A DNA stretch of 35,441 nt from Candidatus Sumerlaeia bacterium (lineage in GTDB: Bacteria > Sumerlaeota > Sumerlaeia > SLMS01), in contig JBBQYG010000020.1 in assembly GCA_038208905.1 (NCBI GenBank), positions 1 through 35,441 on the forward strand, in the 5' to 3' direction. Each line of letters begins with the position of its first letter. Position 1 is the first letter of the stretch. Below, piece after piece: positions 4,396 through 27,929 of this stretch. The position numbers and the translations under genes are program-made. The notes under the pieces were generated by a model, which was not told where the DNA came from, ran no database searches, and saw only the letters and a list, made by a program, of their open reading frames with translations.

Positions 4396-4460
4396 GGACG
4401 ACGCTCTCCTTGGATGGACAGCGGGGAGCCTGCGGCGGTGGCGGGCTTCGGCGCAAGGAA

Positions 4461-4491
4461 TTACTTCGGGATTTAATAAACTCCGACAGTA
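4461..4491. promoter_or_regulatory. Candidate ROK operator upstream of the ABC operon
   Basis: AT-rich TTACTT-N8-AATAAA (4461-4480) within an imperfect dyad TACTTCGGGATTTA-A-TAAACTCCGACAGTA, ~65-95 bp upstream of the SBP start; resembles XylR/NagC-type ROK boxes. Confidence 0.4.
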
Positions 4492-4509
4492 TTTCGCCGC
4501 ATCGCGCGC

Positions 4510-4977
4510 TCAGCCAAACATCTCCTCAAGCATCGGGCCCTCCAGCGAACGCCCTCCCTGCCGGAGCGTCCGCGCGTTGAGCCTGGGCCAGTGGCTCCAT
4601 TCGAAGGGCTCCGCATCCAGCCGGTCGTCCGCGGGCCACTCCCCCCGGAACATCGCGCCGGGGACGCCGGGGGCGGGTTCGTATCCGTGGCGGCGATAGA
4701 AGGCCTCCTGGAACGAACCGGCGTCGGTGTTGAGCTGGGAGAACCGGATGCCGCGCTGCTCCGACACCCGGCGATGCAGCACAAAGAGCGCCCCCGCCAG
4801 GCCGAGGCCGCGCCACTCGGGCCGCGTATAGACATGGCCCACGATCTCCGCACCATCGGCGTCCCACGCGCACACATTGGCAACGGGCGTCTCGCCATGC
4901 CACGCAGCGAAGAACGTCCACCGCAGCCCGCCGTGCGCCGCGAGGCGGACTTCGCGTCCGCCCGCCAGCGTCGTCAC
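4510..4977 (-). CDS. GNAT-family N-acetyltransferase
   Basis: Acetyl-CoA motif VYTRPEWRGLGLAG and FYRRHGY; GTG start at 4977 overlaps the epimerase stop (GTGA). The longer 4510..5943 ORF is not the real start. Confidence 0.8.
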   Translation of the reverse strand: MTTLAGGREVRLAAHGGLRWTFFAAWHGETPVANVCAWDADGAEIVGHVYTRPEWRGLGLAGALFVLHRRVSEQRGIRFSQLNTDAGSFQEAFYRRHGYEPAPGVPGAMFRGEWPADDRLDAEPFEWSHWPRLNARTLRQGGRSLEGPMLEEMFG

Positions 4978-5888
4978 GGCATCGCCCCGATCGTGCGGCG
5001 CAGGCCCTCCTCCAGCTCCACCTGCGGCGCCCAGCCCAGCGACCGCAGGCGCGTGGCGTCTCCGCACGAGTTGCGCACATCGCCGGGGCGTTCCGGCGCG
5101 TGGGCGACGGAGGAGGACGATCCCGTGATGGCGACGATGCGCTGCGCGAGTTCGTTCACGGTGATCTCCGATCCCGTGGCGACGTTGTAGATCCCGTCGC
5201 CAGTCTCCGCCGCCAGCAGGTTGGCGCGCACCACGTCCTCCACGAAGACGAAGTCGCGGCTCTGTCCGCCGTCGCCATAGATCGTGATGGGCTGGTTGCG
5301 GCGCGCGCGTTCCGCAAAGATCGCGACGGCGGCGGCATAGGGCGACTTGGGATCCTGGCGCGGGCCATAGACGTTGAAATAGCGCAGCGCCACCGTCTGC
5401 ACGCCAAAGGCCGCGCGATACAGCGCCGTGTAGTATTCGCCCGTCAGCTTGCTGATCGCATAGGGGCTCACGGGCTCCGGCAGGTTGTCCTCGCAATGGA
5501 TGTGGCGCTGGGCCTCGCCATAGACGGCGCTGGTGGTGGAGAACACCACGCGCGCGGCGGGATTCAGGCGCGCGGCCTCCAGGATGTTCAGCGTGCCGTT
5601 CACGTTGATGGCCTGTGTGAGGTAGGGTTCGCTCATGGATTCGGGGACGCTGACGAGCGCGGCCAGGTGATGGACCACATCGGCCCGCGCGACGAGCCCG
5701 CGCACAAGGTCGCGGTCCTCGACGCTCCCCTCCACGAACTCGCAGCCGATTCCATCCAGGTTGCGGCGATGCCCCGTTCGGAAGTTGTCCAGCACGACGA
5801 CCCGGGCGCCGCGGTCGATCCATGCGCGGGCGATGTGGCTGCCGATGAATCCGGCTCCGCCGGTGACGAGGACTCTTTTCTGGCTCAC
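4974..5888 (-). CDS. NAD-dependent epimerase/dehydratase (extended SDR, UDP-sugar 4-epimerase-like)
   Basis: TGGAGFIGSH Rossmann motif, YAISK (YxxxK), LRYFNVYGPRQ, GDGGQSRDFVFV. Confidence 0.93.
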   Translation of the reverse strand: MSQKRVLVTGGAGFIGSHIARAWIDRGARVVVLDNFRTGHRRNLDGIGCEFVEGSVEDRDLVRGLVARADVVHHLAALVSVPESMSEPYLTQAINVNGTLNILEAARLNPAARVVFSTTSAVYGEAQRHIHCEDNLPEPVSPYAISKLTGEYYTALYRAAFGVQTVALRYFNVYGPRQDPKSPYAAAVAIFAERARRNQPITIYGDGGQSRDFVFVEDVVRANLLAAETGDGIYNVATGSEITVNELAQRIVAITGSSSSVAHAPERPGDVRNSCGDATRLRSLGWAPQVELEEGLRRTIGAMP

Positions 5889-5990: not shown

Positions 5991-7418
5991 ATGACCGCGC
6001 CACGAAATCTCCTCGCCGCCCTGCTGCTGCCGCTCGCCGCGGCCCTTCAGGCGGAGCCCATCGTGTACGCGCCGCTCGCGGGCGCCATCGACAATCCCGA
6101 GCGCGGCTTCTACTCCGTGGGATCGGGCAACGGATCGCTGGCCGATCTTTCCACCGACTACGGTTTCATCCGGTCCCAGGGCGTCACGCTGGTCTATGGC
6201 CGCCTCAATCTGGAGCCCTATGCCGCCACGGCGCTTCCCCCGTCCTACCTCGGCGACCTCTCCGCGGGATTCGGCCTCGCGCGCGCGGCGGGGCTCAAGG
6301 CCATCGTCCGCGTCGTCTATAACGATGGCTTCGCCACGCCCAACCCGCCGACGGAGGCCACGCTCGGGCAGACGCGCGCCCATCTCCAGCAGCTCCAGCC
6401 GATCTTCGAGGCCAACAAGGACGTGATCCTCCTCTTCCAGGCGGGCATTGTTGGCGCCTGGGGCGAGTGGCACAGCACCGACCAGTACCGCGACCCGCTG
6501 GAGGCCTATGCCGACAACAACGTGCCCACTCCGGCGGGCCGGCGCAGCGTGGTGGATGCGCTGTTGGAGTATACCCCCGCCAACCGCTTCATCCAGGTGC
6601 GCCGCCCGTGGTTCAAGGACCCCGACTTCGGCGCGGAGGCGCTCTTTCCCGGGGAGCAGGTGGACGCCGCCACGGCGTTCACGTCGCTGGGCGTGGCGCG
6701 CGTGGGGCATCACAACGATTGCTTTCTGGCGTCCAACACCGATTTCGGCACCTATCAGGGGAGTGGAATCAACGCGCAGAAAAACTTCCTGGCGGAAGAC
6801 ACGCGATTCGTCCCCATGGGGGGAGAGACGTGCAACCCCGACATCGACTTTGCCAACTGCACCCGCGCGCTGGACGAGATGGCCCGCTTCCACTACAGCT
6901 ACCTCAACCTGCTCTATCATCCCGACGTGTTAATCGAGTTCCGCAACTCCGGCTGCTTTGACGAGATCAACCGCCGGCTCGGCTATCGCTTCGAACTCGT
7001 CAGCGCCGACCTGCCCACCACCGTGCAGAACGGTGTGGCCGCCAACTTCACCGTCACCATCCGCAACGTCGGCTTTGCCGCCGCGATCAACCAGCGCCCC
7101 GTGTATCTCCTGGTCCTCGACGGAGCAACCATCGTCGCCCAGGTCGAGGTCCCCGGCGCCGACCCCCGGCGCTGGCTGCCGGGCGCCGACCACGCGCATT
7201 CGGGCTCGTTCACCGTCAGCGGCGTCGCTCCGGGGGCCACGCTCTCCGCCGCGCTATGGCTCCCCGATCCCGAACCCGTATTGCAGCAACTCCCCGCCTA
7301 CTCGATCCGCCTCGCCAGCGAGAACGTGTGGCAACCCGCCACGGGCCGCAACGTGCTGACCGACTCCATCACCGTCGGCCCGACGGCGACGGTGCCGGAT
7401 GCGTTTATCCTGAACTGA
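5991..7418 (+). CDS. Secreted DUF4874/DUF4832-domain protein (putative glycoside hydrolase-like)
   Basis: Signal peptide (MTAPRNLLAALLLPLAAALQA); NPERGFY, AGIVGAWGEWH, VGHHNDCFLA, MGGETC, RRLGYRF, NVGFAA, DPRRWLPG, YSIRLAS motifs typical of this family. Confidence 0.8.
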   Translation: MTAPRNLLAALLLPLAAALQAEPIVYAPLAGAIDNPERGFYSVGSGNGSLADLSTDYGFIRSQGVTLVYGRLNLEPYAATALPPSYLGDLSAGFGLARAAGLKAIVRVVYNDGFATPNPPTEATLGQTRAHLQQLQPIFEANKDVILLFQAGIVGAWGEWHSTDQYRDPLEAYADNNVPTPAGRRSVVDALLEYTPANRFIQVRRPWFKDPDFGAEALFPGEQVDAATAFTSLGVARVGHHNDCFLASNTDFGTYQGSGINAQKNFLAEDTRFVPMGGETCNPDIDFANCTRALDEMARFHYSYLNLLYHPDVLIEFRNSGCFDEINRRLGYRFELVSADLPTTVQNGVAANFTVTIRNVGFAAAINQRPVYLLVLDGATIVAQVEVPGADPRRWLPGADHAHSGSFTVSGVAPGATLSAALWLPDPEPVLQQLPAYSIRLASENVWQPATGRNVLTDSITVGPTATVPDAFILN

Positions 7419-7528
7419 ATGCCTGGCGGGGGCGGATGCGCTCGGGTGCGATTGCACAGGAGTATCAAGCCTCGCCAACAAGTTCTCTTGGATGGAGAGT
7501 GATGCACGCTTCAGCGCGCATCTACTTA

Positions 7529-7546
7529 CCCCGGATTTATCCGGGG
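7529..7546. repeat. Short perfect palindrome CCCCGGA-TTTA-TCCGGGG (REP-like)
   Basis: 7-bp stem with 4-nt loop in intergenic DNA; resembles REP/IS200-IS605-associated hairpins; single copy in this window. Confidence 0.4.
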
Positions 7547-7738
7547 AGGGGCAACGCGGATCAGGGATTCCCCGACTCGCCACGGCACGAGTTGTAACCA
7601 TCATTTGCGATTCGTGGCACGGGGCGTGGCGGCGTCTGCGATTCGCATTGGTAAGCGTTCATTCGCGATGCGACTGCCCTTGACCGCCTTCATCGGCCCG
7701 CGACTTCTACCGCACCCCCACGTGAAGGAACCCCCCCT

Positions 7739-9643
7739 ATGAAGAAGAGCATATTGAATTCGCTCACCGCGCTGATGCTCATTGGCGCGGCGCCGGTCGC
7801 CGGTCTGGCTGGTCAGTTTCTCGACAACTTTCAGGACAACAATTTCGCGTCGGAGGCGTGGACCGCTGGATGGGTCGGCGGCAGCGGCGGGTCGGGAAAG
7901 AGCTTAGCCTATCGCACGCGACAGACGTTTCCCATCGGCGCCTCCGACAAGGATTCCGCGCTGGTTCTGATTTCGGGAAACTACTACTACCAGTATGGAA
8001 CCGATCCCGAATCCGCCGCGGGCAACAGCCAGATCGCTGCTTCGGACCGCACGACGGCTTCTCCCGCGCAGCGGCTTCAGTTTGCCGGGCTCAACCTGGC
8101 GCGTGGCACGGCCTATGATGCTACGGCCCACAAGTACCTGCGATTCACCGCATGGCTTCCCGTAACCCAGCCGACCTGGGCCAGCACCAACGCCGCCGAT
8201 ACCTTTGTCGTCGGTATTGGAGAACTCAATCCCTCGCCAAACAGCGGCGTCGGCCCGTGGAACAGCACGGGAACCACGCTGGTCGGCGTTCCCCTCACTT
8301 CCACGCCAACGGCCTATCTGGTCGAGGTCAACGATTCACTCAAGTTCAAGATCGATCCCATCTTTACGGCGATCTTCGGCGGCGCCACCACAACGCGTGC
8401 CTCCATCAACTCCGTGAACTTCGGTTACCGTCGCTCGGGCGCTCCGGCAGCTGCATCCAACCTCGGCCGCATGTTCTTCATCGACGACATCGCCTTTCTC
8501 AATGCCGACCCCGGATATACGCTCACGCCGAGCGGCGCGCCCATCGACGAGTCGGGCCCCGGGAACACCACGACCTTCACCGTGGTCCTCAACGCGCAGA
8601 CCACCAATCCGATCACGATCAGCCCGGTTTCCGCCGCTCCCGGCCAGGTGACGGTGTCGCCCGCCTCCTGGACATTCATTCCCACGGGGACGCCGGGCGC
8701 AAACGAGTCGCTGTGGAATAGCGCCGCCACCTTTACCCTGACCGCCGTGGACGACTTTGCCGACGAGGCCAACACCCCCTACAACATCACGTTCACCAGC
8801 ACGGTCAACGACCTCGCCTACACCAGCGTGCCGCTCCCCACGACCTCGATCACCGTGCAGGACGACGACCTGCCGCCGGGATATACGTTCACCCCCGCCT
8901 CCAACAACCTCAATGAAACCTCGCCGGGGAACACGGCGAACCTCTCCATGGCGCTCGATGGAATTCCCAGCGCCGCCGTGGACGTGACCTTTGCGCCATC
9001 CAACGGCGCCCAGATCGGCGTCTCGCCCACCACGTGGAGATTCCTTCCGTCGGGAATTCCCGGCGCGGGCGAATCGCTGTGGAACTCCCCCGCCAGCATC
9101 ACCGTTACGGCCACCGACGACGGCGTGGACGAGGCCGATATCACCTATACCGTGACGGCGAATGTGACCACGTCGGACCTTGCCTATACCGCGCTGGCCA
9201 ATCCCGCCGTCAATGTGCAGGTGCTGGACGACGACCTGCCCGCAGCGTATTCCTTCACGCCCGCCAGCAACACCATCAACGAATCCCCCGCGGGGAACTC
9301 GGTGAACCTCTCGCTCGCGCTGGCCAGCGCGCCGACATCGGCCATCGACGTCACCTTCGTCCCGTCCAACGGCGCCCAGATCAGCGTCTCGCCCACAACG
9401 TGGCGCTTCCTTGCGTCGGGAATTCCCGGCGCGGGAGAGTCACTCTGGAGCACCCCAGCGGCGGTCACCGTGACGGCAGTAGGGGACGGCGTGGACGAGC
9501 CGGACACGACCTATACCGTGACGGCGGACGCGACCACGGCGGATGCGGCATTCACGCTGCTGGCGGATCCGGTGGCGAACGTGGAAGTGCTGGACGACGA
9601 CGTGGTCGCTAGCGTTGGCGAGTGGACAATCCTGGAAGACTGA
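7739..9643 (+). CDS. Secreted surface protein: N-terminal CBM-like beta-sandwich + three Calx-beta-like repeats
   Basis: Signal peptide; FFIDDIAF strand ends the N-domain; three 122-aa repeats ending [QL]DDD; AAGGA SD upstream. Confidence 0.75.
   Translation: MKKSILNSLTALMLIGAAPVAGLAGQFLDNFQDNNFASEAWTAGWVGGSGGSGKSLAYRTRQTFPIGASDKDSALVLISGNYYYQYGTDPESAAGNSQIAASDRTTASPAQRLQFAGLNLARGTAYDATAHKYLRFTAWLPVTQPTWASTNAADTFVVGIGELNPSPNSGVGPWNSTGTTLVGVPLTSTPTAYLVEVNDSLKFKIDPIFTAIFGGATTTRASINSVNFGYRRSGAPAAASNLGRMFFIDDIAFLNADPGYTLTPSGAPIDESGPGNTTTFTVVLNAQTTNPITISPVSAAPGQVTVSPASWTFIPTGTPGANESLWNSAATFTLTAVDDFADEANTPYNITFTSTVNDLAYTSVPLPTTSITVQDDDLPPGYTFTPASNNLNETSPGNTANLSMALDGIPSAAVDVTFAPSNGAQIGVSPTTWRFLPSGIPGAGESLWNSPASITVTATDDGVDEADITYTVTANVTTSDLAYTALANPAVNVQVLDDDLPAAYSFTPASNTINESPAGNSVNLSLALASAPTSAIDVTFVPSNGAQISVSPTTWRFLASGIPGAGESLWSTPAAVTVTAVGDGVDEPDTTYTVTADATTADAAFTLLADPVANVEVLDDDVVASVGEWTILED
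8510..9601 (+). repeat. Three intragenic tandem repeats, 366-bp period
   Basis: Repeats start at 8510, 8876 and 9242; copies 2 and 3 share long near-identical DNA, e.g. CGTCGGGAATTCCCGGCGCGGG and TCCAACGGCGCCCAGATC. Confidence 0.85.
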
Positions 9644-9648
9644 GCCCG

Positions 9649-12600
9649 ATGAAGAAGCCGCATTCCATCGCGCGGGGGGGGAGCGCTGTCTCCCTCCTCG
9701 CTGCGCTTTCCCTGCTCGCGGGAATCACGTCCGCCCAGGAGGCGCGGACGGGATGGAGGGCCGCGTTTGAGCCGGCTGGCATCATCGCCACCGGCGCAGA
9801 GCCGTTTGCCATCGAGCTGGCCGATGTGGACGACGACGGCGACATCGACGCGGTGACGGTATCGCGCACAGACAGCACCGTGGCGTGGCAGGAAAACACC
9901 GACGGCCGGGGCGGCGCCTGGCTGGCCCACACCATCACCACGGCCAGCGCGGCGCCGCTGAACTTTGCGCTCGCCGATTTCAACGACGACGATTTCCCCG
10001 ATGTGGTCGTCGCCTCCTCTGGCGAGGACCGCGTCGATTGGTACCAAAATCCGGGTACGCCGGGCGGCGCATGGGCCGCGCACTCGATCTATGCCCCCCC
10101 CGCGCAGCCCACCCCGCCCGACATCACCACGCCGACCTATCTGGTGGTGGCCGACATGGACGACGACGGCGACACCGACGTGGTGGTGGCCTCCTACACC
10201 GATCGCCGCGTGACGCTGCTCATCAATGGCGACGGCGCAGGGCAGAGCTGGACGCGGCAGACGCTCTCCTCCAATGCGCGAGATACGCTGGGCCTTGCCG
10301 TTGGCGACCTGACCGGCGAAGGCGATATCGACGTCGTATCGCTCTCGACCTTCGACGATTCCGTGGGCGCGCTGATCAACGATGGCGCCACGCCGCCCAT
10401 CTTCGCCTCCATCGCCATCGAGCCCACCGGCGGCCAGCCCTCCACCGTGAACTTTCCATCGAACGCGTGTATAGACGACTTCGACGGCGACGGCCGCGCC
10501 GACATCGCGGTGGTGTCGATCCTGGACTCCAAGCTGTCGCTGTATACGAACCTCGGCGGATCGCCGCCGACATTCGCCGCCAGCACGCTGCGCAGCTTTC
10601 CGCCGCTCTTTGGCGTGGGATTCAACGGCCTGTTTCGCGCGGCGGCATTCGACGCAGACCGCGACGGCGACGCCGACATCGCGACGGCGTCGCTCTATGA
10701 CGGGCAGGTGGGCTTTCTGGAGAACCGCCTGAGCGAGGGCCTCGGCTGGCCCTTCACGACCGTCACCGCCGCAGCCTCCGGCGCGACCCACGTTGGCGTC
10801 GGCGACATCGACGGCGACGGTCGCGTGGACATGGCCAGTTCCGCCAGCTATGCCGGGCGATTCGAGTGGTACCGCAACGTGGGCGGGCAGTGGGACGCCG
10901 CCGGCATCGACCGCGCCCCCGCGCTCGCGACACCGTCCACGACCACTCCACTGGCGACTCTGCGCATTCATAGCTTTGGCCGAGCGGGCGACGAGACGCT
11001 GTCGCTCGACGCAATGACGCTCGGCTTCACCACGCGCGACGGCGCCACGATCACGCTCGCACAGGCCGCGCCCCTGCTGGAGACCATTCACATCCACCTC
11101 GACGGCGACCAGGACGGCGCAATCGGTGGTCCGATGGATGCACTGATCGAGAGCATTGATATGCCGAGTACCGGCGCCACGGAACTGACCGTCGCGCTCA
11201 ACGGCGCCAACATCCCCCCCGGCGATACCGTGGACTTCCTGATCGCGGCGGATATACGCGCCACGGCGGAGTCCGCGACACCGGCGGCGCTGCGCCTCTC
11301 CGTCGCATTCGACGATCTGTTCGTCAGCGGAATCGAGACCTTCGATCCCGCGACACGCCACGCGGGCCCAACGAGTTTCCTGACCAAGAGCATCACCGCC
11401 GACGGTGTTCCGCCCGCCGCGCCCACGATCCTGGGCATCGATCCCGACACGGGCGTCGCCGGCGACGCCATCACCAACCAGGCCGCCATCGCGGCGGGGG
11501 GCAGCGCGGAGCCACGCGCCACGGTGACGCTTCTGCGCAATGGCGCGGCGGTGGGGACGGGCCTGGCCGATGCACTGGGGGCCTGGCGTATAGACGCGGG
11601 CATCCTGGGGGCGGGGCGATCCACGCTGACGGCGCGCGCGACGGACGGGGCGGGGAACCAAGGGCCGCTCTCCTCCAGCTTCTTCGCCACGCTCGACCTC
11701 GTCGCGCCGACCGTGCAGCTTGGCGCGCCCGACCTGACCGCCACGCGCTCCGGTCCCGTGCGGATCCCCGTCGTCTTCGCGGGGCAAAACCGCGTGGATC
11801 TTTCGCCCGCCCATGTGGCGATCGAGGGCACCGGAATCACCGGCTACCAAGTGGCAACCACCGCCAACCAGATCACCGTTTCGGCAATCACGGGCGACGG
11901 CAGTTTCACCGTTCGGGTGCTGGAAGGCGCCGCGTCGGACAACTCCGGCAATGCGACCGCCGCATCCGGGCCGTCGGCGACGATCCTGGTGGACAACACT
12001 CCCCCGGCGGTGGACTTCGGCGCGCCGACGCCATCGCGCGCGCGCAGTGGAAGCATTGTCTATACACTCGACGTGGAGCCTGGCGCGATCCCGGCGCCGA
12101 ACATCGCGGCCCTTGTGGGCGTGCAGGCCACCGGCACCGCGAATGGATCCGCGACACTGACGGGGAACCAGATCGCAATCGCGAGCCTCGGCGGAACCGG
12201 CACGCTGAGCCCGACGCTCGCAGCGGGTGCCTTTGCCGACGCGATGGGCAATGCCACGCCTCTCCTGGTCGCAGGCGATGCCGCCGCCATCGACAACACC
12301 CCGCCGTCGGCCACCTTCGCGACGCTTGGAGATGGCATCGTCGTGGGCGAGCCGATGCTGCTCGAGGTGGCGGGGGCCTCCGAGCCCATCCAGACGACAC
12401 AGCTTTGGGTGCGCTTCGACGGAGCCGCATGGACGCTTGCCTCCGGCCCCCTTGTCTATACGCCCTCACGCGTGGACGACGCCGCCGACGGACTCTATGA
12501 GTTCTACGTGAGGCTTGGCGACGACCTTGGCAATCTCGGGCCCGCGCCGGTGCCGGGCACGCCGCCATCCGGTTCCATTCTTTTCAACAGCGCCGGGGGC

Positions 12601-13026
12601 TCCTGGTATCGGCGCGACCTCTCCGCCGGGGGGCCGTTCCTGTTTCCAGCCGAGACGGGCCGCGCCGTCGAGCTGGAGACGGATTCCACGGGCGGCATTG
12701 TTAGGACTCTGTGGCGTGACGATGTGGACCTCGCCCCCGCCAACCTCGATCCGGCGCTGCTGGCGGGCGTGACACTCGTGATCGAGGCCAACGTGTCTAT
12801 ACAAGGAACGTGGACGATTCCGATGCCCGCCGCTCTCGATCTTTCATTGCTGGAGGACATCTGGGTGGCGCGCGATGGCGTCGTTTCCCTGGCGGGCGGA
12901 ATTGTTGGCGTGGACCCGGTGGCGGACACGGCGACGATCACCCTGGATGTGGACGCAGGCATGACGACTGTATATCTCGCAAGACCGGGCGCACTCCTCT
13001 CCGCCGGGCCGGAGGCCTGCCCATGA
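9649..13026 (+). CDS. Secreted FG-GAP/VCBS-repeat protein with bacterial Ig-like domains
   Basis: Signal peptide from ATG 9649; seven DxDxDGxxD-type repeats; DGAGN/DNTPP Ig-like repeats; ATGA overlap with the next gene. Confidence 0.82.
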   Translation: MKKPHSIARGGSAVSLLAALSLLAGITSAQEARTGWRAAFEPAGIIATGAEPFAIELADVDDDGDIDAVTVSRTDSTVAWQENTDGRGGAWLAHTITTASAAPLNFALADFNDDDFPDVVVASSGEDRVDWYQNPGTPGGAWAAHSIYAPPAQPTPPDITTPTYLVVADMDDDGDTDVVVASYTDRRVTLLINGDGAGQSWTRQTLSSNARDTLGLAVGDLTGEGDIDVVSLSTFDDSVGALINDGATPPIFASIAIEPTGGQPSTVNFPSNACIDDFDGDGRADIAVVSILDSKLSLYTNLGGSPPTFAASTLRSFPPLFGVGFNGLFRAAAFDADRDGDADIATASLYDGQVGFLENRLSEGLGWPFTTVTAAASGATHVGVGDIDGDGRVDMASSASYAGRFEWYRNVGGQWDAAGIDRAPALATPSTTTPLATLRIHSFGRAGDETLSLDAMTLGFTTRDGATITLAQAAPLLETIHIHLDGDQDGAIGGPMDALIESIDMPSTGATELTVALNGANIPPGDTVDFLIAADIRATAESATPAALRLSVAFDDLFVSGIETFDPATRHAGPTSFLTKSITADGVPPAAPTILGIDPDTGVAGDAITNQAAIAAGGSAEPRATVTLLRNGAAVGTGLADALGAWRIDAGILGAGRSTLTARATDGAGNQGPLSSSFFATLDLVAPTVQLGAPDLTATRSGPVRIPVVFAGQNRVDLSPAHVAIEGTGITGYQVATTANQITVSAITGDGSFTVRVLEGAASDNSGNATAASGPSATILVDNTPPAVDFGAPTPSRARSGSIVYTLDVEPGAIPAPNIAALVGVQATGTANGSATLTGNQIAIASLGGTGTLSPTLAAGAFADAMGNATPLLVAGDAAAIDNTPPSATFATLGDGIVVGEPMLLEVAGASEPIQTTQLWVRFDGAAWTLASGPLVYTPSRVDDAADGLYEFYVRLGDDLGNLGPAPVPGTPPSGSILFNSAGGSWYRRDLSAGGPFLFPAETGRAVELETDSTGGIVRTLWRDDVDLAPANLDPALLAGVTLVIEANVSIQGTWTIPMPAALDLSLLEDIWVARDGVVSLAGGIVGVDPVADTATITLDVDAGMTTVYLARPGALLSAGPEACP

Positions 13027-16000
13027 AGCGCGCGATACTCCTTCTTACGGCGATGGCCTGCGCGGGCACTGCCCCCGGTGCCGTGTGGGACGACTTCGTG
13101 GCCGCGCGGAGTGCCAACGAGCGCTCGCCGATTCCCGATTTCTCCTACGCGGGCTATCATCGCGGAGAGGCCCGCCCGCCCCACGTGGCCGGGCCGATCT
13201 TCAACGTGACCGATTTCGGCGCCGTCGCCGACGATGGGCTAAGCGACCGCGACGCCATCCAGTCCGCGATTACGGCGGCGGAGACCGCGGGCGGCGGCGT
13301 GGTGTTTTTTCCTCCGGGGAGCTTCACCTTCAACACCGCGGCGGCGGTGGGCTCCACCATCAGGATCAGGGGGAGCAACGTAGTCCTCCGCGGAAGCGGC
13401 AGCGGCGAGGGCGGCACCGAGCTCTTCATGGCACGGAACTTCACGCCGACCGATCCGGCGCGCCCGTGGACGACGCCGTGGATGTTTGAGATCGCTCCTC
13501 CGGCACAGGGGCAGCCGCTGGTCACCACCCTCGCGGAGTTGGCGCCGATGGGCGCCGACTCCATCGTGGTTCAGAACGCGGCGACGCTCAGCCCCGGCGA
13601 CTGGATCACGCTGAGCCTGGCGGATCCCGCCGCGATGGAGAGCTTCCTCGCGCCGCTTCGCGCCTCGGGCGCGTGGACACGTCTATACACCGACGGCCTT
13701 CGCGCCAGCGAGCGGCACGAAGTCGATCGCGTGGAGGGAAACCGTGTTTTCCTGCGCGAGCGCCTGTTGACGGACATCGACCCGCAGTTTGCCTGGCGCG
13801 TTGTGCGCACGCCGGCCATCGAGGAGATCGGCTTCGAGGACATCCTGTTTCGCGGCAACTGGAAGGAGACCTTTGTCCACCACCAGAACGCGACCCACGA
13901 CTATGGATGGAGCGCCCTGCTGTTCACCTTCGTCGCGAATAGCTGGGTCCAGCGCTGCCGCTTCGTGGATTGGAACTACGCGGTGCAGTTCGACAGGACT
14001 TCTTACAGCACCGTCCTGCACACCTCGCTGGAAGGGAACCGCGGCCACTTCGGATTCACGTCGCGCGGCGGGAGCAACACGCTCTTCGCCCTGTCGCGCG
14101 ACACGTCGTCTGCGTTTCACTCCGCAAGCTGGGGCTACGAAAGCAGCGGCGTCGTGTTCTGGCGCTATGACTATGCGGGAAACACGTGCTGGGACGCGCA
14201 TGGCGGCACGCCCTATGCCACGCTCATCGATGCGTCGTCGGGCGGCGTGGAGTATGGCCACAGCAGCGGACCCATCGAGGGGCTGCCGAATCACCTGCGC
14301 GATTTCGTGCTCTGGAACTTCACTCAGATCGGCGCGCCGGTCGCTGGCTATGATTTCTGGCGTCCCGATCCGTTTGCCTACGACCGCTTCGTGATGCCGT
14401 GGATCGTGGGCTTTACCGGCACCGGGACCACGTTCAACGCGGCGCACGCGCAGATCGAGAGCCACGGTCAGCGCGTCGATCCAGAGTCACTGTACGAGGC
14501 CCAGATGGCGCTGCGCCTTGGCGCGCCGCCAACGTGGATCGCACAGGCCAAGCGCGACTGGGACGTGGTGAGGGAGGCGCGCGCCATCGTGCCCGGGCAC
14601 GATGCCGTGGCCGCGCGCACCGCCGACACGATCACGCCCAACGCGGTCAATGCGCTCGATGCGACTCTTGTCTATTCGGGGCTCTCGCCCTTCGCCACCA
14701 ACCTCTCCATTGCGGAGGACGGCGGCTCCGCGGTCGACGTGCTTCTGGATGGAATCACCGATCGCGCTCCGTGGAGTTTTGCTCCGGGCCCAGATGGCGT
14801 GCGGCGACTGACGCTGCGTCTCTCCAACATCACCGCCACGGCGGGCGAGGTGCAGTTGGACGTCGTACTCGACCGCGTGGCTCCATCGGTTCCGGCATTC
14901 GCGGAGGCGAGCGCCTCCACCACCTCCTCTCCTGTCTCCATCGTGTGGAATGCGAGCGACGACGGCGCTGGTTCCGGCATCGCGGGATACGATGTGGAGG
15001 TTGCGCCGCTTCCCTCTGGCGCGCCGCAGACCTACTTCGCCAACGCAAACGCGCTCGATGTCATTCTCGCGGAGGGCGACTTTTCGATTCGTGTGCGCGC
15101 AGCGGATGGCGCCGGGAATCGCAGCGCGTGGAGCACCGCGCCGCTGGCGCTGACGGTCGATGGCACCGCGCCGTCCGCGATTGCCGATGCGACGATCGCG
15201 CCGGGGAATCAGTTCGCCGATTCGTGGGCGACGGGCGCGGCGCAATTCGACTTCGCCGGTACTGCCGAGCCCGGCGCCGCGATTCACATTCTGTATCGCG
15301 GCGCGGAGTACGAGGCCGTCGCCAATGCGGGCGGCACATTCAGCGCGACGATTCCCGCGGGCGAGGAGGGCACCGCCGAGCTGCTGGCCGTGGCGGAGGA
15401 TGACGCGGGGAACCAGGGCGTGGAGGCCTCCATCGCCATCGTCGTCGATCGCACTCCGCCCAACTTCACGTTCGGGTTCCTGCCAGCCGTCCCCCATGCA
15501 TCCACCTTGCCGGTTCCGTTTCCGATCAGCGTTTCCGATGCGACGCCGGTCACGCTGAATTCGGCGCAGATCCAACGCCAGATCACCGGCAACCTGGTGG
15601 TGGAGGGCGTAACGCTCTCGGGCTCAACCCTGATGGTCGCGATTGGCAAGGCGGTTGGGGATCTGCCGCTCAGCGGGGCCATCCGGCTGCGCGGGCTTGC
15701 GGGGGCGTTGACCGATGCGGCGGGAAATCAATCCGCGCTCACCGGATTTTCCGGGGTGATCGCCGTCGATGTCACTCCGCCCACGGCGGGCATCGCCACG
15801 CGCCCGCCCTATCAGGCCGGCGGAGACATTGATCTCGCGATCACGCTGGCCGATGACCAGCCAACCAACGACATCGAGTCCGCCTTCTGGATCCAGCCAC
15901 CCGGATTGCCCTGGCGCGTGCTTGCCGGGGGGACTCCCGGCCCGGGAAGTTTTGTCTATACACCCACGACGCGCGGCGAGGAGTTCGACGGCGTCTATCG

Positions 16001-16544
16001 CTTCGCCGTCCGCGCCACTGACCCCGGCGGCAACGCCAACTTTCCCGCCACGGGCCCCGGCCCCGAGACGCCGATCACGCCAGTCGCGTTCAACACCGAG
16101 GCCGGTACGCCGTTTGTCCACGACATCGCGGAGAACGGCATATTCCACTTCCCCATCGTCACGAATCGCGTCGCGTCGCTCCAGATTGCGGCGCTGCGCC
16201 AGCCGGGCCTCCTCCAGTTCACTAATCCCGATGGGCTCCCAATGCTTCCGCCGCGCTTCATTCCCGCGCTGCTGCTGCCACAACACTGGATCGCCGACAC
16301 CGACACGCTCCGCGCCGTGGATGGAACGCTCATGTTTTCCTTCCCGACTCCGATCCCCGCTGGCATCGGCGCGGTGGACATGGCGTGGCGGATTGCTCCG
16401 GGTGGCTCCATCGCCGAGCCCCACGCCGCGCTCCCCGGCGGCGCGCCGGGCACGCTGACCTTCGCGGTGTGCGAGATCGAGGGCACCTGGATCCTCGGCT
16501 CCTCGCGCGCGCTGCCTCTGCCGGAATCGATGACGATCTACTGA
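13023..16544 (+). CDS. Secreted beta-helix (Pectate_lyase_3/DUF4955-like) putative polysaccharide-active protein with FN3/Ig-like stalk
   Basis: Start at ATG 13023 (MKRAILLL...); PDFSYAGYHRGE, FNVTDFGAVADDG, GGVVFFPPG, VVLRGSGS, LPNHLRDFVLWN, PESLYEAQ motifs; DGAGN Ig repeats. Confidence 0.78.
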   Translation: MKRAILLLTAMACAGTAPGAVWDDFVAARSANERSPIPDFSYAGYHRGEARPPHVAGPIFNVTDFGAVADDGLSDRDAIQSAITAAETAGGGVVFFPPGSFTFNTAAAVGSTIRIRGSNVVLRGSGSGEGGTELFMARNFTPTDPARPWTTPWMFEIAPPAQGQPLVTTLAELAPMGADSIVVQNAATLSPGDWITLSLADPAAMESFLAPLRASGAWTRLYTDGLRASERHEVDRVEGNRVFLRERLLTDIDPQFAWRVVRTPAIEEIGFEDILFRGNWKETFVHHQNATHDYGWSALLFTFVANSWVQRCRFVDWNYAVQFDRTSYSTVLHTSLEGNRGHFGFTSRGGSNTLFALSRDTSSAFHSASWGYESSGVVFWRYDYAGNTCWDAHGGTPYATLIDASSGGVEYGHSSGPIEGLPNHLRDFVLWNFTQIGAPVAGYDFWRPDPFAYDRFVMPWIVGFTGTGTTFNAAHAQIESHGQRVDPESLYEAQMALRLGAPPTWIAQAKRDWDVVREARAIVPGHDAVAARTADTITPNAVNALDATLVYSGLSPFATNLSIAEDGGSAVDVLLDGITDRAPWSFAPGPDGVRRLTLRLSNITATAGEVQLDVVLDRVAPSVPAFAEASASTTSSPVSIVWNASDDGAGSGIAGYDVEVAPLPSGAPQTYFANANALDVILAEGDFSIRVRAADGAGNRSAWSTAPLALTVDGTAPSAIADATIAPGNQFADSWATGAAQFDFAGTAEPGAAIHILYRGAEYEAVANAGGTFSATIPAGEEGTAELLAVAEDDAGNQGVEASIAIVVDRTPPNFTFGFLPAVPHASTLPVPFPISVSDATPVTLNSAQIQRQITGNLVVEGVTLSGSTLMVAIGKAVGDLPLSGAIRLRGLAGALTDAAGNQSALTGFSGVIAVDVTPPTAGIATRPPYQAGGDIDLAITLADDQPTNDIESAFWIQPPGLPWRVLAGGTPGPGSFVYTPTTRGEEFDGVYRFAVRATDPGGNANFPATGPGPETPITPVAFNTEAGTPFVHDIAENGIFHFPIVTNRVASLQIAALRQPGLLQFTNPDGLPMLPPRFIPALLLPQHWIADTDTLRAVDGTLMFSFPTPIPAGIGAVDMAWRIAPGGSIAEPHAALPGGAPGTLTFAVCEIEGTWILGSSRALPLPESMTIY

Positions 16545-16642
16545 GGAGACTCGCCACCCGCGCCCGCCATGATCCCCGTCGCGGGGTCTCAGGCCGCCCG
16601 ACCCCGGCTGAAGCTTTTTTATGAACTTCGGGCCAAGCCAAG

Positions 16643-16734
16643 GTAGCACGCGCATCCAGTGCCCAAGCCCCGACCAACCTCCCGTTCTGCGAAGGCCCTG
16701 GGATGCACCCACATGGGCGTGGCTTCCATGCCAC
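16643..16734. repeat. Degenerate GTAG-type REP doublet
   Basis: GTAGCACGCGCATCC at 16643 and inverted CATGGGCGTGGCTTCCATGCCAC (16712-16734), similar to the REPs at 32-93. Confidence 0.45.
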
Positions 16735-16882
16735 CGTGCTTCGCGGCCTTGAACCCGGCGGATTCCCCCCGCCATCGTGGCGCCCCGGTGAACAAGCGCG
16801 CACGGGACCGGTTTCGGCTTGAGCAAGGGGCACGTTGGAAGCCTCATACTCCGTTTGGGAATAGTCCCCGGAGGAGCCTCCC

Positions 16883-19048
16883 ATGAATTCCTATCTCGCA
16901 TTTGGTTGTCGTCTTAGATTGTTGATGGTTGCGGCCGCCGTTTTCGCGGTCGGGGTCGCCGCCGCCGCCCCGCCCGCCAACTACTATCAGACGGTGACGA
17001 CGCAGACCGGCGCGGAGCTGAAGGAGGAGCTGTACCTGATCGTCAGCGGCCAGCGCGGCTATGCCTTCAAGTCGCTCACCTATGCCGCCACGCGCGATGT
17101 GCTTCTCAACTCCGTGGACAGCGTGGGGGAGAATCAGGTGAAGATGATCTATACCAACGACATCCGCACCACCGACGGCTGGCCCGCGACGATCAATCGC
17201 GAGCATTCATGGCCCCAGTCCTACGGTTCCTCCGTGCGCCCGAAGGACGCCGATCTGCACCACCTGTTCCTGTGCGATGCCTCGATCAACAGCTCGCGGC
17301 AGAACATGCTTTACGGCTACGTGACGGGCGGAGTGATCGAGACAAACTATACCGGCCTTCCCGAGGACCAGAACATCCGCACCAGCACCGTGTGGCAGGC
17401 GTCGCCGCGCAGTCGCGGGGATGTGGCGCGCGCGATCCTCTACATGGATACGCGCTACACGGACTACTCCCTGATCAACCGGGGAGAGACCCTCGGCAGC
17501 AACCAGATGGGCTACCTCGACGACATCCTGCAATGGAACGCCGAGGACCCGGTGGACGATTGGGACCGTGGCCGCAACGACCGCGTGTTCACCTTCCAGA
17601 ACAACCGCAATCCCTACATCGACCACCCCGAGTGGATCACCCTTGTCTATGGGGCCGCCAACAATGCCGCGCCATCCATCGCCAACACCGTCACCATTCC
17701 CGCCGTTCCCGTGGAGGGACAGGCCATCGGATTCAGCACCGCCGCAACCGACGGCGACGGCGTGGCCTCGGTTCAGGCGTTCTGGCGCGTCGGTGGCGCG
17801 GGCACCTTCACGGCAACGCCAATGGCCAACGCGGGCGGCAGTACCTTCACCGCGCCGAACGCCGTCTCGATGCAGCCCGAGGGCACCATCGTGGACTACT
17901 ACGTCCGCGCGGAGGACGCCGTCGGCAACGTGTCGTTCCGTCCCGTCTCCGCCGATGTGTCCCCGCTGACCGTGGTGGTGCGCGGGGATTCGCCGGAGCT
18001 GACCGCGATGGAGATCCTTCCCGGAACCATCCGCGCTTCGGACCGCCCCAACATCTTTGTCACCGCGCGGGACAACGCCGGCGACGGCGCCGACAACCTG
18101 ACGCTCAAGGTCTTCTGGCGCTTGGCCGGAAACGGTCCGTTTGCCGAGGTTCCGATGGCGATCGTGTCGGGCACGCGGTGGGAGACCACTGTATCCCTCC
18201 CCGAGCAGCCCGAGGACACCGCCGTGCAGTACTATGTGGAGGCACGCGACGCGGGAGGAAAAACAGCGACGCTCCCCGCGGGCGGACCGGCCGATCCCTC
18301 GGCCTACTTCGTCGAGGCCGACTATCCCTTCCTCGCCATTCCCAACGCCGACGCCGTGGCGGGGAGGATCCTCCTGACCGAGTTCGCCCACCAGACCGTG
18401 GATGCCTTCACGGAGTTCGTGGAGATCGCCAACGTCTCCAGCGAGGACTACCGCATCGGCGGCCTCGTGATCACCGACAACAACGTGGGCGCGGTGTCGG
18501 AATCATGGGTGCTGTTCCCGCCGGAGGCCCGCCTTCCGCGCGGCGGAATCGTGGTGGCCTTTATCCGCGCCGCGCCGAGCCAGGAATTCCTGGACGCCAT
18601 CCCGCGCGTCTCCAACCGCGATGGCGCGCCGGTTCAGGTGTATGTGCTGGATGGCGAGCGCACCTTCGACGGACGCCCGGCCCCCTCGCTGCTGAGGGGC
18701 GACGCGGGCGAACCGAATCTCTCCACCGCCGACAACCTCTCGCTCGTGTTCTGGGCAACGGGCGTCACTCCGACGGAGGCGCATACCTCCGCCCAGGTCA
18801 TCGACGGCGTCGGCTGGGGGAATATCACCACCGCCAACAAAACCGTCGGGTGGGGACCCAACATCACCACGGACACCTCGGAGTTCAACGTCACCATCGG
18901 CAGCCGCGACGGCGCCGTCCGCATCGTTCCCGGCGACACCAACACCAAGGCCGACTGGATGTCCTACACCGGCGCCGATCAGTACACCCCTGGCGCGCTG
19001 CCGGATGCGTTCAAGGATCGGGTGGGCGAGGCGTGGGTCCTTTTTTGA
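16883..19048 (+). CDS. Secreted endonuclease I (Bsn/EndA-like) with Ig-like and lamin-tail-like domains
   Basis: NREHSWPQS, DLHHLF, RGDVARAILYMDTRY, NRNPYIDHPEW; two xxYYVxAxD Ig-like domains; ILLTEF...EFVEIAN lamin-tail-domain motif; GGAGGAG SD. Confidence 0.87.
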   Translation: MNSYLAFGCRLRLLMVAAAVFAVGVAAAAPPANYYQTVTTQTGAELKEELYLIVSGQRGYAFKSLTYAATRDVLLNSVDSVGENQVKMIYTNDIRTTDGWPATINREHSWPQSYGSSVRPKDADLHHLFLCDASINSSRQNMLYGYVTGGVIETNYTGLPEDQNIRTSTVWQASPRSRGDVARAILYMDTRYTDYSLINRGETLGSNQMGYLDDILQWNAEDPVDDWDRGRNDRVFTFQNNRNPYIDHPEWITLVYGAANNAAPSIANTVTIPAVPVEGQAIGFSTAATDGDGVASVQAFWRVGGAGTFTATPMANAGGSTFTAPNAVSMQPEGTIVDYYVRAEDAVGNVSFRPVSADVSPLTVVVRGDSPELTAMEILPGTIRASDRPNIFVTARDNAGDGADNLTLKVFWRLAGNGPFAEVPMAIVSGTRWETTVSLPEQPEDTAVQYYVEARDAGGKTATLPAGGPADPSAYFVEADYPFLAIPNADAVAGRILLTEFAHQTVDAFTEFVEIANVSSEDYRIGGLVITDNNVGAVSESWVLFPPEARLPRGGIVVAFIRAAPSQEFLDAIPRVSNRDGAPVQVYVLDGERTFDGRPAPSLLRGDAGEPNLSTADNLSLVFWATGVTPTEAHTSAQVIDGVGWGNITTANKTVGWGPNITTDTSEFNVTIGSRDGAVRIVPGDTNTKADWMSYTGADQYTPGALPDAFKDRVGEAWVLF

Positions 19049-19145: not shown

Positions 19146-19919
19146 CTATCCTCTCGCCAACGCATACTTCTCCGCGACGTGGACCCAGTTGATGATGGCG
19201 GGGAAGGCGTCCACATAGGCGCCGCGGTTGTTCTTGTACTTGAGGTAGTAGGCGTGTTCCCATACGTCGATGCCCAGAATGGGGACGATGCCCCACTGGG
19301 TGTTGAGCTGCTGGTTCTGGGCGCCGAGGATGACGAGTTTCTGGGCGGCGAAGCTGAAGGCGAGGAGGCCCCAGCCGGAGCCCTCGACGCGCTTGCTGGC
19401 GGCGGCCAGGTGGGACCACATGGCGTCGAAGCCGCCGAAGTCCCGGTCGATGGCCTTGGCCAGATCGCCGGTCGGCTTTCCGCCCATGCTCCCCTCTCCC
19501 TCGTCGGGCGGGCCGATGGAATCCCAAAACAGGCAGTGGAGGAAATGCCCGCCGCCGTGGAACGCGGATTGGCGCGACCAGTGATCGACGAGGTCGAAAT
19601 TCCCCGCGGCGCGCGCCTCGGCCAGGGCCTTCTCGGCGGCAATCAGCCCGGCCACATAGCCGGCATGGTGCTTGTCGTGGTGGAGGCGCATGGTCTCCTC
19701 GTCGATGACCTCCTTCACGGCGTCATAGCCATAGCGAAGCGGCGGCAACACATAGGCGCCCGATCCATCGATGGCGCCCGGCACCAGATTCATCAGCGAG
19801 TGGGCGGAGTCCGTGGTGTGGGCGCTCGCGCTTCCCGGCGACAGCGCCGACAGCGCGGCGGCCCCCCCGGCGACGGCCCCGGCGACAAGAAAATCCCTGC
19901 GATTCAGTTCATGGTTCAT
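19146..19919 (-). CDS. sodA: Superoxide dismutase Fe/Mn family (probably Mn) with Tat signal peptide
   Basis: NRRDFL twin-arginine signal; LHHDKHH, FHGGGHFLH, GSGWG, DVWEHAYY; GGG before the second His ligand and QNQ suggest Mn type. Confidence 0.88.
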   Translation of the reverse strand: MNHELNRRDFLVAGAVAGGAAALSALSPGSASAHTTDSAHSLMNLVPGAIDGSGAYVLPPLRYGYDAVKEVIDEETMRLHHDKHHAGYVAGLIAAEKALAEARAAGNFDLVDHWSRQSAFHGGGHFLHCLFWDSIGPPDEGEGSMGGKPTGDLAKAIDRDFGGFDAMWSHLAAASKRVEGSGWGLLAFSFAAQKLVILGAQNQQLNTQWGIVPILGIDVWEHAYYLKYKNNRGAYVDAFPAIINWVHVAEKYALARG

Positions 19920-20119: not shown

Positions 20120-20488
20120 TCAGGAACCGTCGGCCTGGGGGAAGACGTGGGGGAAGTTAGCCTGGGTGGACAGCGAGCAGGCGGGATCAACGTCAACCGC
20201 GCCGATGGTGTAGACGCCGTTGCCGGGGCACTCGGGCGACTTGCGGATGTAGTTGGCGTTGCCAATGAGATCGGCCCACGTGGGGGTCGACGTGCCGGCA
20301 ACGTTCGTCTCAAGCGCCCAGGACTGCTTGGCGCCGTCGACCTTGGACTGGTTCTCCTGGCAGGCATTGCGGCGCGAGATTTCGCGGGCGCGGAGGAAGC
20401 TGGGGACGGCGATCGCGATCAGGATGCCGATGATGGCAACCACGATCATGATCTCAACGAGGGTGAAGCCTTTGGTGCTGCGAACCAT
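20120..20488 (-). CDS. Type IV pilin-like protein (short, likely major pilin)
   Basis: Class III signal KG|FTLVEIMIVVAIIGIL with E5; three Cys; strong SD AAAAGGAG. Confidence 0.88.
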   Translation of the reverse strand: MVRSTKGFTLVEIMIVVAIIGILIAIAVPSFLRAREISRRNACQENQSKVDGAKQSWALETNVAGTSTPTWADLIGNANYIRKSPECPGNGVYTIGAVDVDPACSLSTQANFPHVFPQADGS

Positions 20489-23581: not shown

Positions 23582-23750
23582 GGTAGGAGGGATGAGGGAT
23601 TTTTTTGTACAGTCAGGACATGGGTACCACCGGCGGCGGTTCTTCGGTTTCTGGCGAGGGGTGGGACTGATGGGACGTATGCGTCGGCGGGGAGACACCT
23701 CAGCGACACGCCCCCGCCGTTGCTTTTCATCCCTCATCCCTGCCGTTCAT
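23579..23750. repeat. Inverted array of 7-bp repeats with internal 9-bp repeats
   Basis: ATGAGGT-AGGAGGG-ATGAGGG on the left, TTCATCC-CTCATCC-CTGCCGT-TCATC on the right; GTGGGACTG-ATGGGACGT-ATG between them. Confidence 0.55.
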
Positions 23751-23809
23751 CTCCGCTTGCCGGGAACCCCGCCTTCGTCGCACCGTTGCCTTGGAGCAGC
23801 GCGAACCCC

Positions 23810-25858: not shown

Positions 25859-25946
25859 CCCTTGCAAGCCGGGCCCCGCTGGCGATGATGCCAGCGACGC
25901 GGCCCGACACGGCGCGATCCCCAGCACCGTTAGCCCCCGCGCGACC

Positions 25947-27852: not shown

Positions 27853-27929
27853 CAATTGCTCCGGGGGCTTGCGACTGGGTGGAAAATGGGCCTTATGGGT
27901 CGCATGGTTCCTATGCTTTTGTAGTGCCA

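Follow-up and report, generated by a model that had tools for sequence, protein, structure and literature searches.

The 35,441-bp contig JBBQYG010000020.1 of a Candidatus Sumerlaeia bacterium (the whole stretch of DNA analyzed, hereafter the window) contains five consecutive genes for secreted proteins, g1 to g5, two of which clearly end in a short peptide that recurs at the C-terminus of their relatives. This tail reads V-x-[DE]-(x)-W-x-[LIVM]-[FY or DE]-COOH after a linker rich in Thr, Ser, Pro and Val, occupies the last 7-13 residues in all carriers, and is found in four unrelated protein families. By our estimate there is about an even chance that it represents a lineage-specific, helix-free C-terminal tag by which Sec-exported enzymes and adhesins would be sorted or attached. 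The comparative evidence partly supports such a short sorting-like tail in Sumerlaeota, an uncultivated and widespread phylum which the available text of a genomics paper describes as a polysaccharide and chitin degrader (PMC8092238).

Five genes and their C-termini

The five genes, with the domains and C-termini of their products, and a hairpin that follows g4 are as follows.

g1: 5991-7418, plus strand; secreted, glycoside-hydrolase-like protein with DUF4874 and DUF4832 domains (Pfam, 1.3e-55 and 2.6e-34); C-terminus ...TATVPDAFILN, the tail VPDAFILN and stop at 7392-7418
g2: 7739-9643, plus strand; secreted protein with an unnamed N-terminal domain, then three repeats of ~120 residues; C-terminus ...VVASVGEWTILED, the tail VGEWTILED and stop at 9614-9643, Trp at -5
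g3: 9649-13026, plus strand, likely start 9649 at MKKPHS; secreted protein with FG-GAP repeats and Big_13 (Pfam/NCBIfam); C-terminus ...LLSAGPEACP, end and stop at 13006-13026
g4: 13023-16544, plus strand; secreted protein with pectate-lyase-fold/DUF4955, BT3328-like lyase, Big_13 and further beta-rich domains (Pfam/NCBIfam); C-terminus ...ALPLPESMTIY, tail at 16518-16544, Met at -3 and Tyr last
g5: 16883-19048, plus strand; secreted endonuclease I (Pfam Endonuclease_1, 1.4e-32) with Ig-like repeats and a lamin-tail domain (LTD); C-terminus ...KDRVGEAWVLF, tail at 19022-19048 including the stop
Terminator-like hairpin: 16592-16609, plus strand, 3' of g4; from a consensus scan that gave 12 sites versus 7.4 expected in shuffles

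An earlier note on this DNA had described five co-oriented plus-strand genes with these C-termini, and its coordinates and sequences prove exact, as does the overlap of the g3 stop with the g4 start, an ATGA junction. The Sec-type signal peptides that it assigned to all five products are likewise recovered, by a crude in-house rule, in five of five. Its statement that the proteins are all unrelated has to be abandoned: g3 and g4 are paralogous over their C-terminal ~480 residues (BLASTP, 29% identity, E 3e-19), and the g3 end aligns with the g4 tail minus two residues. No significant similarity was found between g5 and g4 (E 0.41).

The window has a G+C content of 64-72%, and third-position G+C reaches 0.81-0.88 in all five genes; together with the homologs found for each of them, this indicates that the genes are real. 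All five end with TGA. The 5-nt gap between g2 and g3, the overlap of g3 and g4 and the hairpin after g4 suggest that g2, g3 and g4 form one transcription unit. Masking of a longer signal by read-through or frameshift was considered and rejected, as the three frames over 240 nt past each stop contain no hydrophobic helix with a basic tail; the annotated C-termini are therefore the true ends. Conservation at the DNA or RNA level was also rejected, there being no nucleotide similarity among the five tail-coding stretches and no Rfam match in the window. Opposite the five genes run antisense open reading frames (ORFs) as long as 779 aa (e.g., 9511-11850, minus strand). Because they do not share the third-position G+C bias of the plus-strand genes, the long minus-strand ORFs inside g2 to g5 are taken as shadow ORFs of a high-GC genome.

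The tail in relatives and controls

Positions are counted from the last residue (0), so that -3 lies three residues before the last. From the relatives, the conserved core is a Trp (or Phe) at -3 with an acidic residue before it. The consensus [VL]-[PG]-[DE]-[AS] of the earlier note had thus settled on the wrong core, and the VxDWxxY/F tails that it mentioned for Sumerlaeota proteins find a match in ends such as ...VSDWTIY and ...VTEWSLF. Its general proposal of a short tail, with neither transmembrane helix nor folded domain, on signal-peptide proteins is borne out by recurrence in relatives of four families, namely endonuclease I/LTD (g5), DUF4874/DUF4832 (g1), DUF4955 lyase-like (g4) and the g2 family. 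The best named homologs of g5 and g1 belong to Candidatus Sumerlaeota, Sumerlaeales and Sumerlaeaceae, at identities of 43-64%, so that the window probably stems from this phylum but lies near none of its named genomes; the named carriers (P0009, P0011, P0026, P0130, P0135 and the locus L002) are all Sumerlaeota.

In the g5 family, a recognizable tail ends the 22 closest relatives and comes in three forms. Trp forms include ...VEDWSSY, ...VPDWTMY, ...VTEWSLF, ...VSDWTIY, ...VDAWSLF, ...TTWVLF and ...EMWITY, to which ...EVWVLF, ...DLWLTF, ...SAWVLY and ...TGWNLY can be added. Extended forms, with two to three extra acidic residues beyond the W-x-L core, occur as well, and tails with extra residues in this family are ...MWILMGDN, ...MWILLGDE and ...LWFLE. 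A sister form, [LV]-P-V-E-L-S-x-F-x-[LV]-E-COOH, is represented by ...PVELSAFGLE (twice), ...PVSLSSFGAE, ...PVELDQFLVD and ...PVELDWAGVE. Close relatives of g1 show both the Trp form (...SEFWTLD, ...GDFWQIE, ...AESWIVE in a named Sumerlaeota, ...ADLWQVR, ...AAWVFR, ...ASWTLR) and the second form (...LPVTTSCFELE, ...LPVVTSRLEFE in a named Sumerlaeaceae, ...VPVALASLTLD). V626 and W629 of g2 are invariant in its two relatives, which end in ...SVPMWRELGQ and ...QVPGWIQITD. The sole full-length ortholog of g4 ends in ...IREGFVAY, and a relative with another C-terminal architecture (P0266; He_PIG, beta-helix) ends in ...AVLHWILY. As a separate observation, six of 147 distant g4 homologs (P0281, P0294, P0296, P0300, P0303, P0350) have a [FVL]-[FYVI]-[RHQ]-[LVI]-x-[VIL] strand within their last ten residues.

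A second Sumerlaeota locus of 20.7 kb, L002, from a metagenome-assembled genome, is one of the matches listed in a genome-contig scan seeded with the nuclease alignment. It bears tandem endonuclease I plus LTD paralogs (6984-9851 and 9980-12763), which end in ...VVDSWASY and ...LPTVLSVFSIE, and none of its eight other complete ORFs ends in a tail. Carriers number two clear and two weak in the 35-kb window and two in L002; as the earlier note had it, the other window genes (0/19) carry no such end. A tree built from the nuclease domain alone intermingles the three tail forms, with 7 parsimony changes of which at least 3 are forced by well-supported branches, and they were no more clustered than the shuffles in 25 of 200. 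Given this interspersion and the presence of two forms on the L002 paralogs, the forms act as exchangeable variants of a single element with the common pattern hydrophobic-x-x-aromatic-x-hydrophobic-x-end.

A descriptive set of 45 carriers defines the anatomy of the tail. Trp stands at -3 in 23 of them and Trp or Phe in 30, Leu at -1 in 18 and an acidic residue at -5 in 20; they close with E (12), Y (11), F (8), D (5), R (4) or N (2). Trp (7.8% vs 1.7% in the protein body), Glu and Leu are enriched over the last 8 residues, of which 17% are acidic and 4.1% K+R. The 12 residues before them show enrichment of Thr, Val, Pro and Ser, aromatic and basic residues being scarce there. Among 43 carriers, no uncharged run within the last 30 residues is longer than 13, and most are of 5-6. 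With uncharged runs of at most 13 and K+R of ~4%, the tail therefore contains no membrane helix and no basic cluster. The N-termini of 38 of the 45 carriers are signal-peptide-like by the crude rule, and those of the remaining 7 are also hydrophobic. The pattern [DE]-x(0,1)-W-x-[LIVMFTSA]-[FY] is found 15 times at the end and 10 times internally in the 31,784 residues of the 45 proteins.

The tail is independent of the domain that precedes it. In the g5-family alignment it remains terminal with or without a ~130-residue domain insert, and in the g2 family it is terminal after three repeats (g2) or one (both relatives). It also follows a Pro/Thr/Ser linker of ~45 residues in P0031 and the different beta-helix architecture of P0266. 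Sequence searches against PDB matched only the nuclease core of g5 and gave no match for g1 or g2.

The sets of close homologs were fixed before their tails were inspected, and controls were 966 ORFs from 78 loci of other phyla, among the matches listed in the contig scan, which returned at least 79 loci. Trp at -3 occurs in 21/43 close homologs of the four families versus 6/366 distant homologs, distributed as follows.

g5 set: close 15/23; distant 0/97
g1 set: close 6/15; distant 3/105
g4 set: close 0/2; distant 2/148
g2 set: close 0/3 (Trp at -5 in 3/3); distant 1/16

Two of the six distant matches, P0146 (...VDTWNSY) and P0266, look like true carriers. Among the controls, Trp at -3 is found in 10/966 ORFs and in 1/225 of those that are signal-peptide-like; the pattern given above is terminal in 0/966, and the loose pattern of the earlier note, as rendered here, in 2/966.

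Because homologs are not independent, tails were also scored across families, with position matrices trained on the tails of other families only. Scores above the 99th percentile of the controls were obtained for 10/22 tails in the g5 family, 4/15 in g1, 1/2 in g4 and 0/2 in g2. Among the window genes, the match is strong for g5 (10.5, reached by 0/966 controls; 11.4 with a matrix from all relatives) and for g2 (8.2, reached by 1/966), marginal for g1, which has Phe for Trp at -3 (3.1, 22/966), and weak for g4 (0.7, 80/966); the g3 end does not match (-5.8, 539/966). For the five genes as a set the combined p is 1.9e-5. The all-relatives matrix, applied to 34 proteins of the window and L002, placed only g2, g5 and the L002 nuclease above threshold, and none of 27 other proteins of the two loci, among them the lipoprotein solute-binding protein, the twin-arginine (TAT) superoxide dismutase, a DPBB lipoprotein and three prepilin-like proteins. 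The earlier claim that all five ends are alike is thus upheld clearly for g5 and g2, marginally for g1 and weakly for g4, and falls for g3. The window would then hold a functional-looking tail on g5 and g2, a weakened one on g1 and g4, and a lost one in g3.

Known C-terminal signals and competing explanations

In other phyla, known sorting signals occupy the position of the tail. Distant g5 and g1 homologs carry there Por_Secre_tail, of type IX secretion systems (T9SS) and present in homologs from Bacteroidota and other FCB-type lineages, or FlgD_ig-type domains, and one distant homolog of these sets carries GlyGly-CTERM (17.8 bits, cut-off 15.5). Distant nuclease homologs have [IV]P-x-[LV]S-x-WG and behind it a helix with an Arg cluster; these tails weakly match IPTL_CTERM (16.1 bits, below the 20.5 cut-off) or the XrtH-substrate model. 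In agreement with the earlier note, no described sorting model matched the five window proteins and four Sumerlaeota homologs, either in NCBIfam at E up to 1 or in Pfam. Furthermore, no description of such a tail appears in the literature searched (subscription journals lie outside it) or in the available text of the Sumerlaeota genomics paper (PMC8092238).

The tripartite signals (PEP-CTERM/exosortase, IPTL-CTERM, GlyGly-CTERM/rhombosortase, MYXO-CTERM/myxosortase, LPXTG/sortase) resemble the tail in their extreme C-terminal position and possibly in having several carriers per genome region. Their carriers, too, combine N-terminal signal peptides with otherwise unrelated domains and have homologs elsewhere with no tail or with another signal, and the [IV]P-x-[LV]S-x-WG start of IPTL/XrtH-like tails resembles the Sumerlaeota motif. 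In contrast, the Sumerlaeota tail has no transmembrane helix and no Arg cluster, and the protein stops 3-6 residues past the aromatic residue; such a substrate could not be held by an intramembrane sorting enzyme. Section 5 of a preprint by Haft gives eight attributes for recognizing C-terminal sorting signals, the eighth being the choice of anchor (bioRxiv 10.1101/2023.06.07.544157). The tail displays attributes 1 (terminal position), 6 (N-terminal signal peptide), 7 (otherwise unrelated carriers) and 8, and the counts in the window and L002 suggest attribute 2 (several per genome). Attribute 3 (three near-invariant residues) is lacking, as only Trp approaches invariance, and attributes 4 (transmembrane helix) and 5 (terminal basic cluster) are clearly absent.

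The C-terminal domain (CTD) of T9SS cargo (Por_Secre_tail, TIGR04183/PF18962) occupies the same place on homologous proteins. In T9SS the last CTD strand matters and a C-terminal extension is tolerated, according to the available text of PMC11285876, and this tolerance parallels the extended forms of the Sumerlaeota tail. However, some ~75 residues fold into a seven-strand Ig-like sandwich in the CTD, compared with ~8 residues after a linker here, and neither PF18962 nor TIGR04183 matches the five window proteins or four Sumerlaeota homologs. A further observation concerns an unnamed beta-rich domain of ~115 residues. Two genomes from outside Sumerlaeota encode it in four proteins, each time directly before a T9SS type A CTD.

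L054, 2533-5511: pre-CTD domain protein
L054, 7863-9485: pre-CTD domain protein
L054, 10010-12043: pre-CTD domain protein
L051, 7620-9773: pre-CTD domain protein

This domain starts with SLPVEL[TN][SG]F...W-x-T-E-S-E-x-E-N-L-G-F and has no match in Pfam, NCBIfam or PDB; in the L054 and L051 proteins, the Pfam and NCBIfam assignments cover no more than the last ~76 residues, and the T9SS CTD models match those of L054. Its first strand, SLPVEL[TN][SG]F, is nearly identical to the second tail form ([LV]PVELSAFGLE-end, VPVSLSSFGAE-end), but the Sumerlaeota protein ends three residues after the Phe, and none of the six frames of the window or of L002 encodes the remainder of the domain.

Donor-strand systems offer another comparison. 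In these, as set out in the available parts of two texts (bioRxiv 10.64898/2026.10.17.759780; PMC10599100), a chaperone grips the C-terminal strand of a subunit and a partner strand completes the fold, and the same portion of the preprint extends the principle from chaperone-usher pili to the WxL-domain pili (Elr pilus) of Bacillota. A Trp-x-Leu core near the C-terminus and a constant attachment module with variable payloads are common to WxL proteins and tail carriers. Nevertheless, a WxL protein carries an entire, though incomplete, Ig-like domain that spans ~150-200 residues, has two WxL motifs and an N-terminal donor strand, and is reported from Bacillota only, whereas tail carriers show a single W-x-[LIV] behind a linker, and Pfam lists no WxL family for the five window proteins at E up to 0.01. 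We regard the likeness as one of principle, not of membership.

Short C-terminal signals are also found on beta-barrel proteins, in which the outer-membrane protein (OMP) beta-signal combines a terminal aromatic residue with alternating hydrophobic residues, and on some proteases of type I secretion systems (T1SS), which end with an acidic residue and three hydrophobic residues. Both are short, uncleaved signals of diderm bacteria. Yet tail carriers are soluble multi-domain enzymes and not beta-barrels, and their ends do not follow the OMP pattern: F or Y is terminal in 19/45, -2 is mostly T, V, G or S, -4 is mixed, and there is no hydrophobic alternation over 0/-2/-4. T1SS cargo has no N-terminal signal peptide and, in the class of large cargo, bears RTX repeats (PMC8277102), whereas tail carriers have Sec-like N-termini, and the Pfam results for the five proteins include no RTX family. 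For RTX cargo, the available text of PMC8277102 describes the C-terminal signal as non-cleavable.

Within this framework, a tag of the kind proposed would act after Sec export and removal of the signal peptide, as a beta-strand-like C-terminal peptide bound by a periplasmic or outer-envelope receptor, probably by strand addition. Strand addition is favored because the second tail form resembles the first strand of the pre-CTD domain. The outcome would be that folded cargo is moved out of the cell or kept on its surface. More specifically, and with clearly less confidence, we tentatively put forward a sorting route of the Sumerlaeota's own, in which a helix-free C-terminal strand of ~8 residues with Trp or Phe at -3 might dock on a dedicated envelope receptor in a donor-strand-like manner, leading to export or surface display.

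Several points weigh against a sorting or attachment tag. The tail is short and degenerate, with Trp at -3, -4, -5 or -6 and E, Y, F, D, R or N as last residue; only 2/5 window genes exceed the 99th-percentile threshold, and neither of the two g2 relatives passes the cross-family matrix. Enrichment is based on the homolog sets of four families and two short loci, in which homologs are not independent, and organism names are known for six carriers only. In addition, P0146 and P0266 joined the set of 45 carriers after their tails had been seen, though in the close and distant counts they stay among the distant homologs. The families may also be less independent than they appear: the g2 repeat plus tail has a marginal BLASTP match (E 0.037) to the insert plus tail of the long nuclease forms, so that a Calx-beta-like domain may have carried along both the g2 tail and the tails of long g5 forms; hhalign of the same regions gave no match, a weak negative as its alignment was keyed on a sequence without the insert. 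Finally, 17/104 distant DUF4874/DUF4832 proteins (e.g., P0144, P0151, P0175, P0216) end in a different short tail, an APGS-type linker followed by A-x-x-F-x-[VL]-[LI]-x(0-3)-end, which hardly occurs in the remaining homolog sets or in the controls and has one carrier named Polyangiaceae. It could represent a second lineage-specific tag or a strand intrinsic to the family, and because the DUF4832 family has this other tail in other lineages, the Phe-type tail of g1 is possibly family-intrinsic too.

In an alternative scenario, which we consider unlikely, the tail would have no sorting role and would be the last beta-strand capping its own beta-sandwich, the likeness among families arising from a common edge-strand pattern, hydrophobic-x-aromatic-x-hydrophobic. 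The strand-like pattern and the beta-rich domains that precede it (LTD, Calx-beta-like repeats, DUF4832, Big_13) fit this scenario, as do the match of the second tail form to the strand that opens a folded ~115-aa domain of other phyla, the W-x-L strands that end P-domain proteins of other lineages (P0083, P0402) and the different strand-like tail of the DUF4832 family elsewhere. However, a capping strand is hard to reconcile with the low-complexity linker of ~45 residues before the tail in P0031, with tails that lie 4-6 residues past the ...NETD or ...DDD end of complete repeats, with retention of the tail whatever domain precedes, and with its W(-3) form being absent in 360/366 distant homologs that have the same domains.

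It is improbable, in our view, that the tail is an evolutionary remnant without function, left over from an IPTL/PEP-CTERM-like signal that lost its helix or from the first strand of the pre-CTD domain. Sumerlaeota tails do resemble the [IV]P-x-[LV]-S-x-W-G that precedes a helix and Arg cluster in distant nuclease homologs, and the SLPVEL[TN][SG]F that starts the L054/L051 domain. Yet conservation of the terminal position and of Trp across homologs at 43-64% identity would not be expected of a functionless leftover, nor would survival through repeated gain and loss of domains, nor at least three variant switches on the nuclease tree that always still yield a tail.

PDZ proteases and DegS read C-terminal aromatic peptides, and the tail could instead be a processing or quality-control handle, its aromatic C-terminus being read by a PDZ-type tail-specific protease or stress sensor and not used for routing. 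The terminal F/Y of 19/45 carriers and the hydrophobic residue at -1 in most of them agree with such a handle, but in 23/45 the last residue is E, D, R or N, and two to six extra residues are tolerated past the W-x-L core. Since such polar or charged ends and extra residues fit poorly with recognition of a free hydrophobic carboxy-terminus, we see slim prospects for this explanation. Least probable of all, and in our estimate very improbable, is chance, with a loose pattern fitted afterwards to five high-GC genes that end in small, acidic and hydrophobic residues: the pattern was indeed drawn up post hoc, the g3 end does not fit it, and g4 (80/966) and g1 (22/966) score inside or close to the range of the controls, but 0 and 1 of 966 controls reach the scores of g5 and g2, and the tail recurs in relatives and in the separate locus L002, so that chance is a live option for g4, to a lesser degree for g1, and disfavored for g5 and g2.

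Neighboring genes and possible meaning of the tail

Around the five genes, the window contains the following features.

139-5888, minus strand: sugar-uptake block with a ROK/MarR regulator, two ABC permeases, a lipoprotein solute-binding protein and an NAD-dependent epimerase
19146-19919, minus strand: Fe/Mn superoxide dismutase with a TAT signal (Pfam TAT_signal, 6.6e-06) and no tail
20120-20488, minus strand: prepilin-like gene with N-terminal methylation motif
23720-25858, plus strand: large TPR protein, C-terminus with two hydrophobic stretches and then RRRS (...LLSVIGGFALRRRSAARPTEL)
25401-26795: ORF with TPR and Zincin_1
27292-27933, minus strand: prepilin-like gene with N-terminal methylation motif
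33052-33738, plus strand: prepilin-like gene with N-terminal methylation motif

The sugar-uptake block, upstream of the five genes, fits a polysaccharide-use neighborhood for secreted hydrolases. The superoxide dismutase is exported, given its twin-arginine signal. The large TPR protein looks tail-anchored in the membrane, as judged from its sequence; its ORF overlaps the next one by ~450 nt, and one of the two TPR starts is therefore probably miscalled. One of the three prepilin-like genes has a GspG-like domain of the type II secretion system. The pilin expansion seen by the earlier note thus exists, with three prepilin-motif genes, and no link to the tails was seen; prepilin-like and TPR genes are merely neighbors of the tail genes, and the T2SS/T4P-like machine and the TPR or PDZ receptor that it put forward would be conjectural candidates.

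Should the tail be merely a structural strand, it would amount to a modest annotation note. If a sorting route of the Sumerlaeota's own were true, the tail would amount to the first strand, split off, of a domain placed before the T9SS signal in other phyla, and would be a class of bacterial C-terminal sorting signal apart from the tripartite signals and the folded CTDs. A short terminal tag, if true, would represent a third design of such signals beside the two known, a linear peptide with neither helix nor domain. It would also provide a handle for finding the machine that reads it, through phylogenetic profiling, and a simple sequence rule to predict the exported enzyme set of the phylum.

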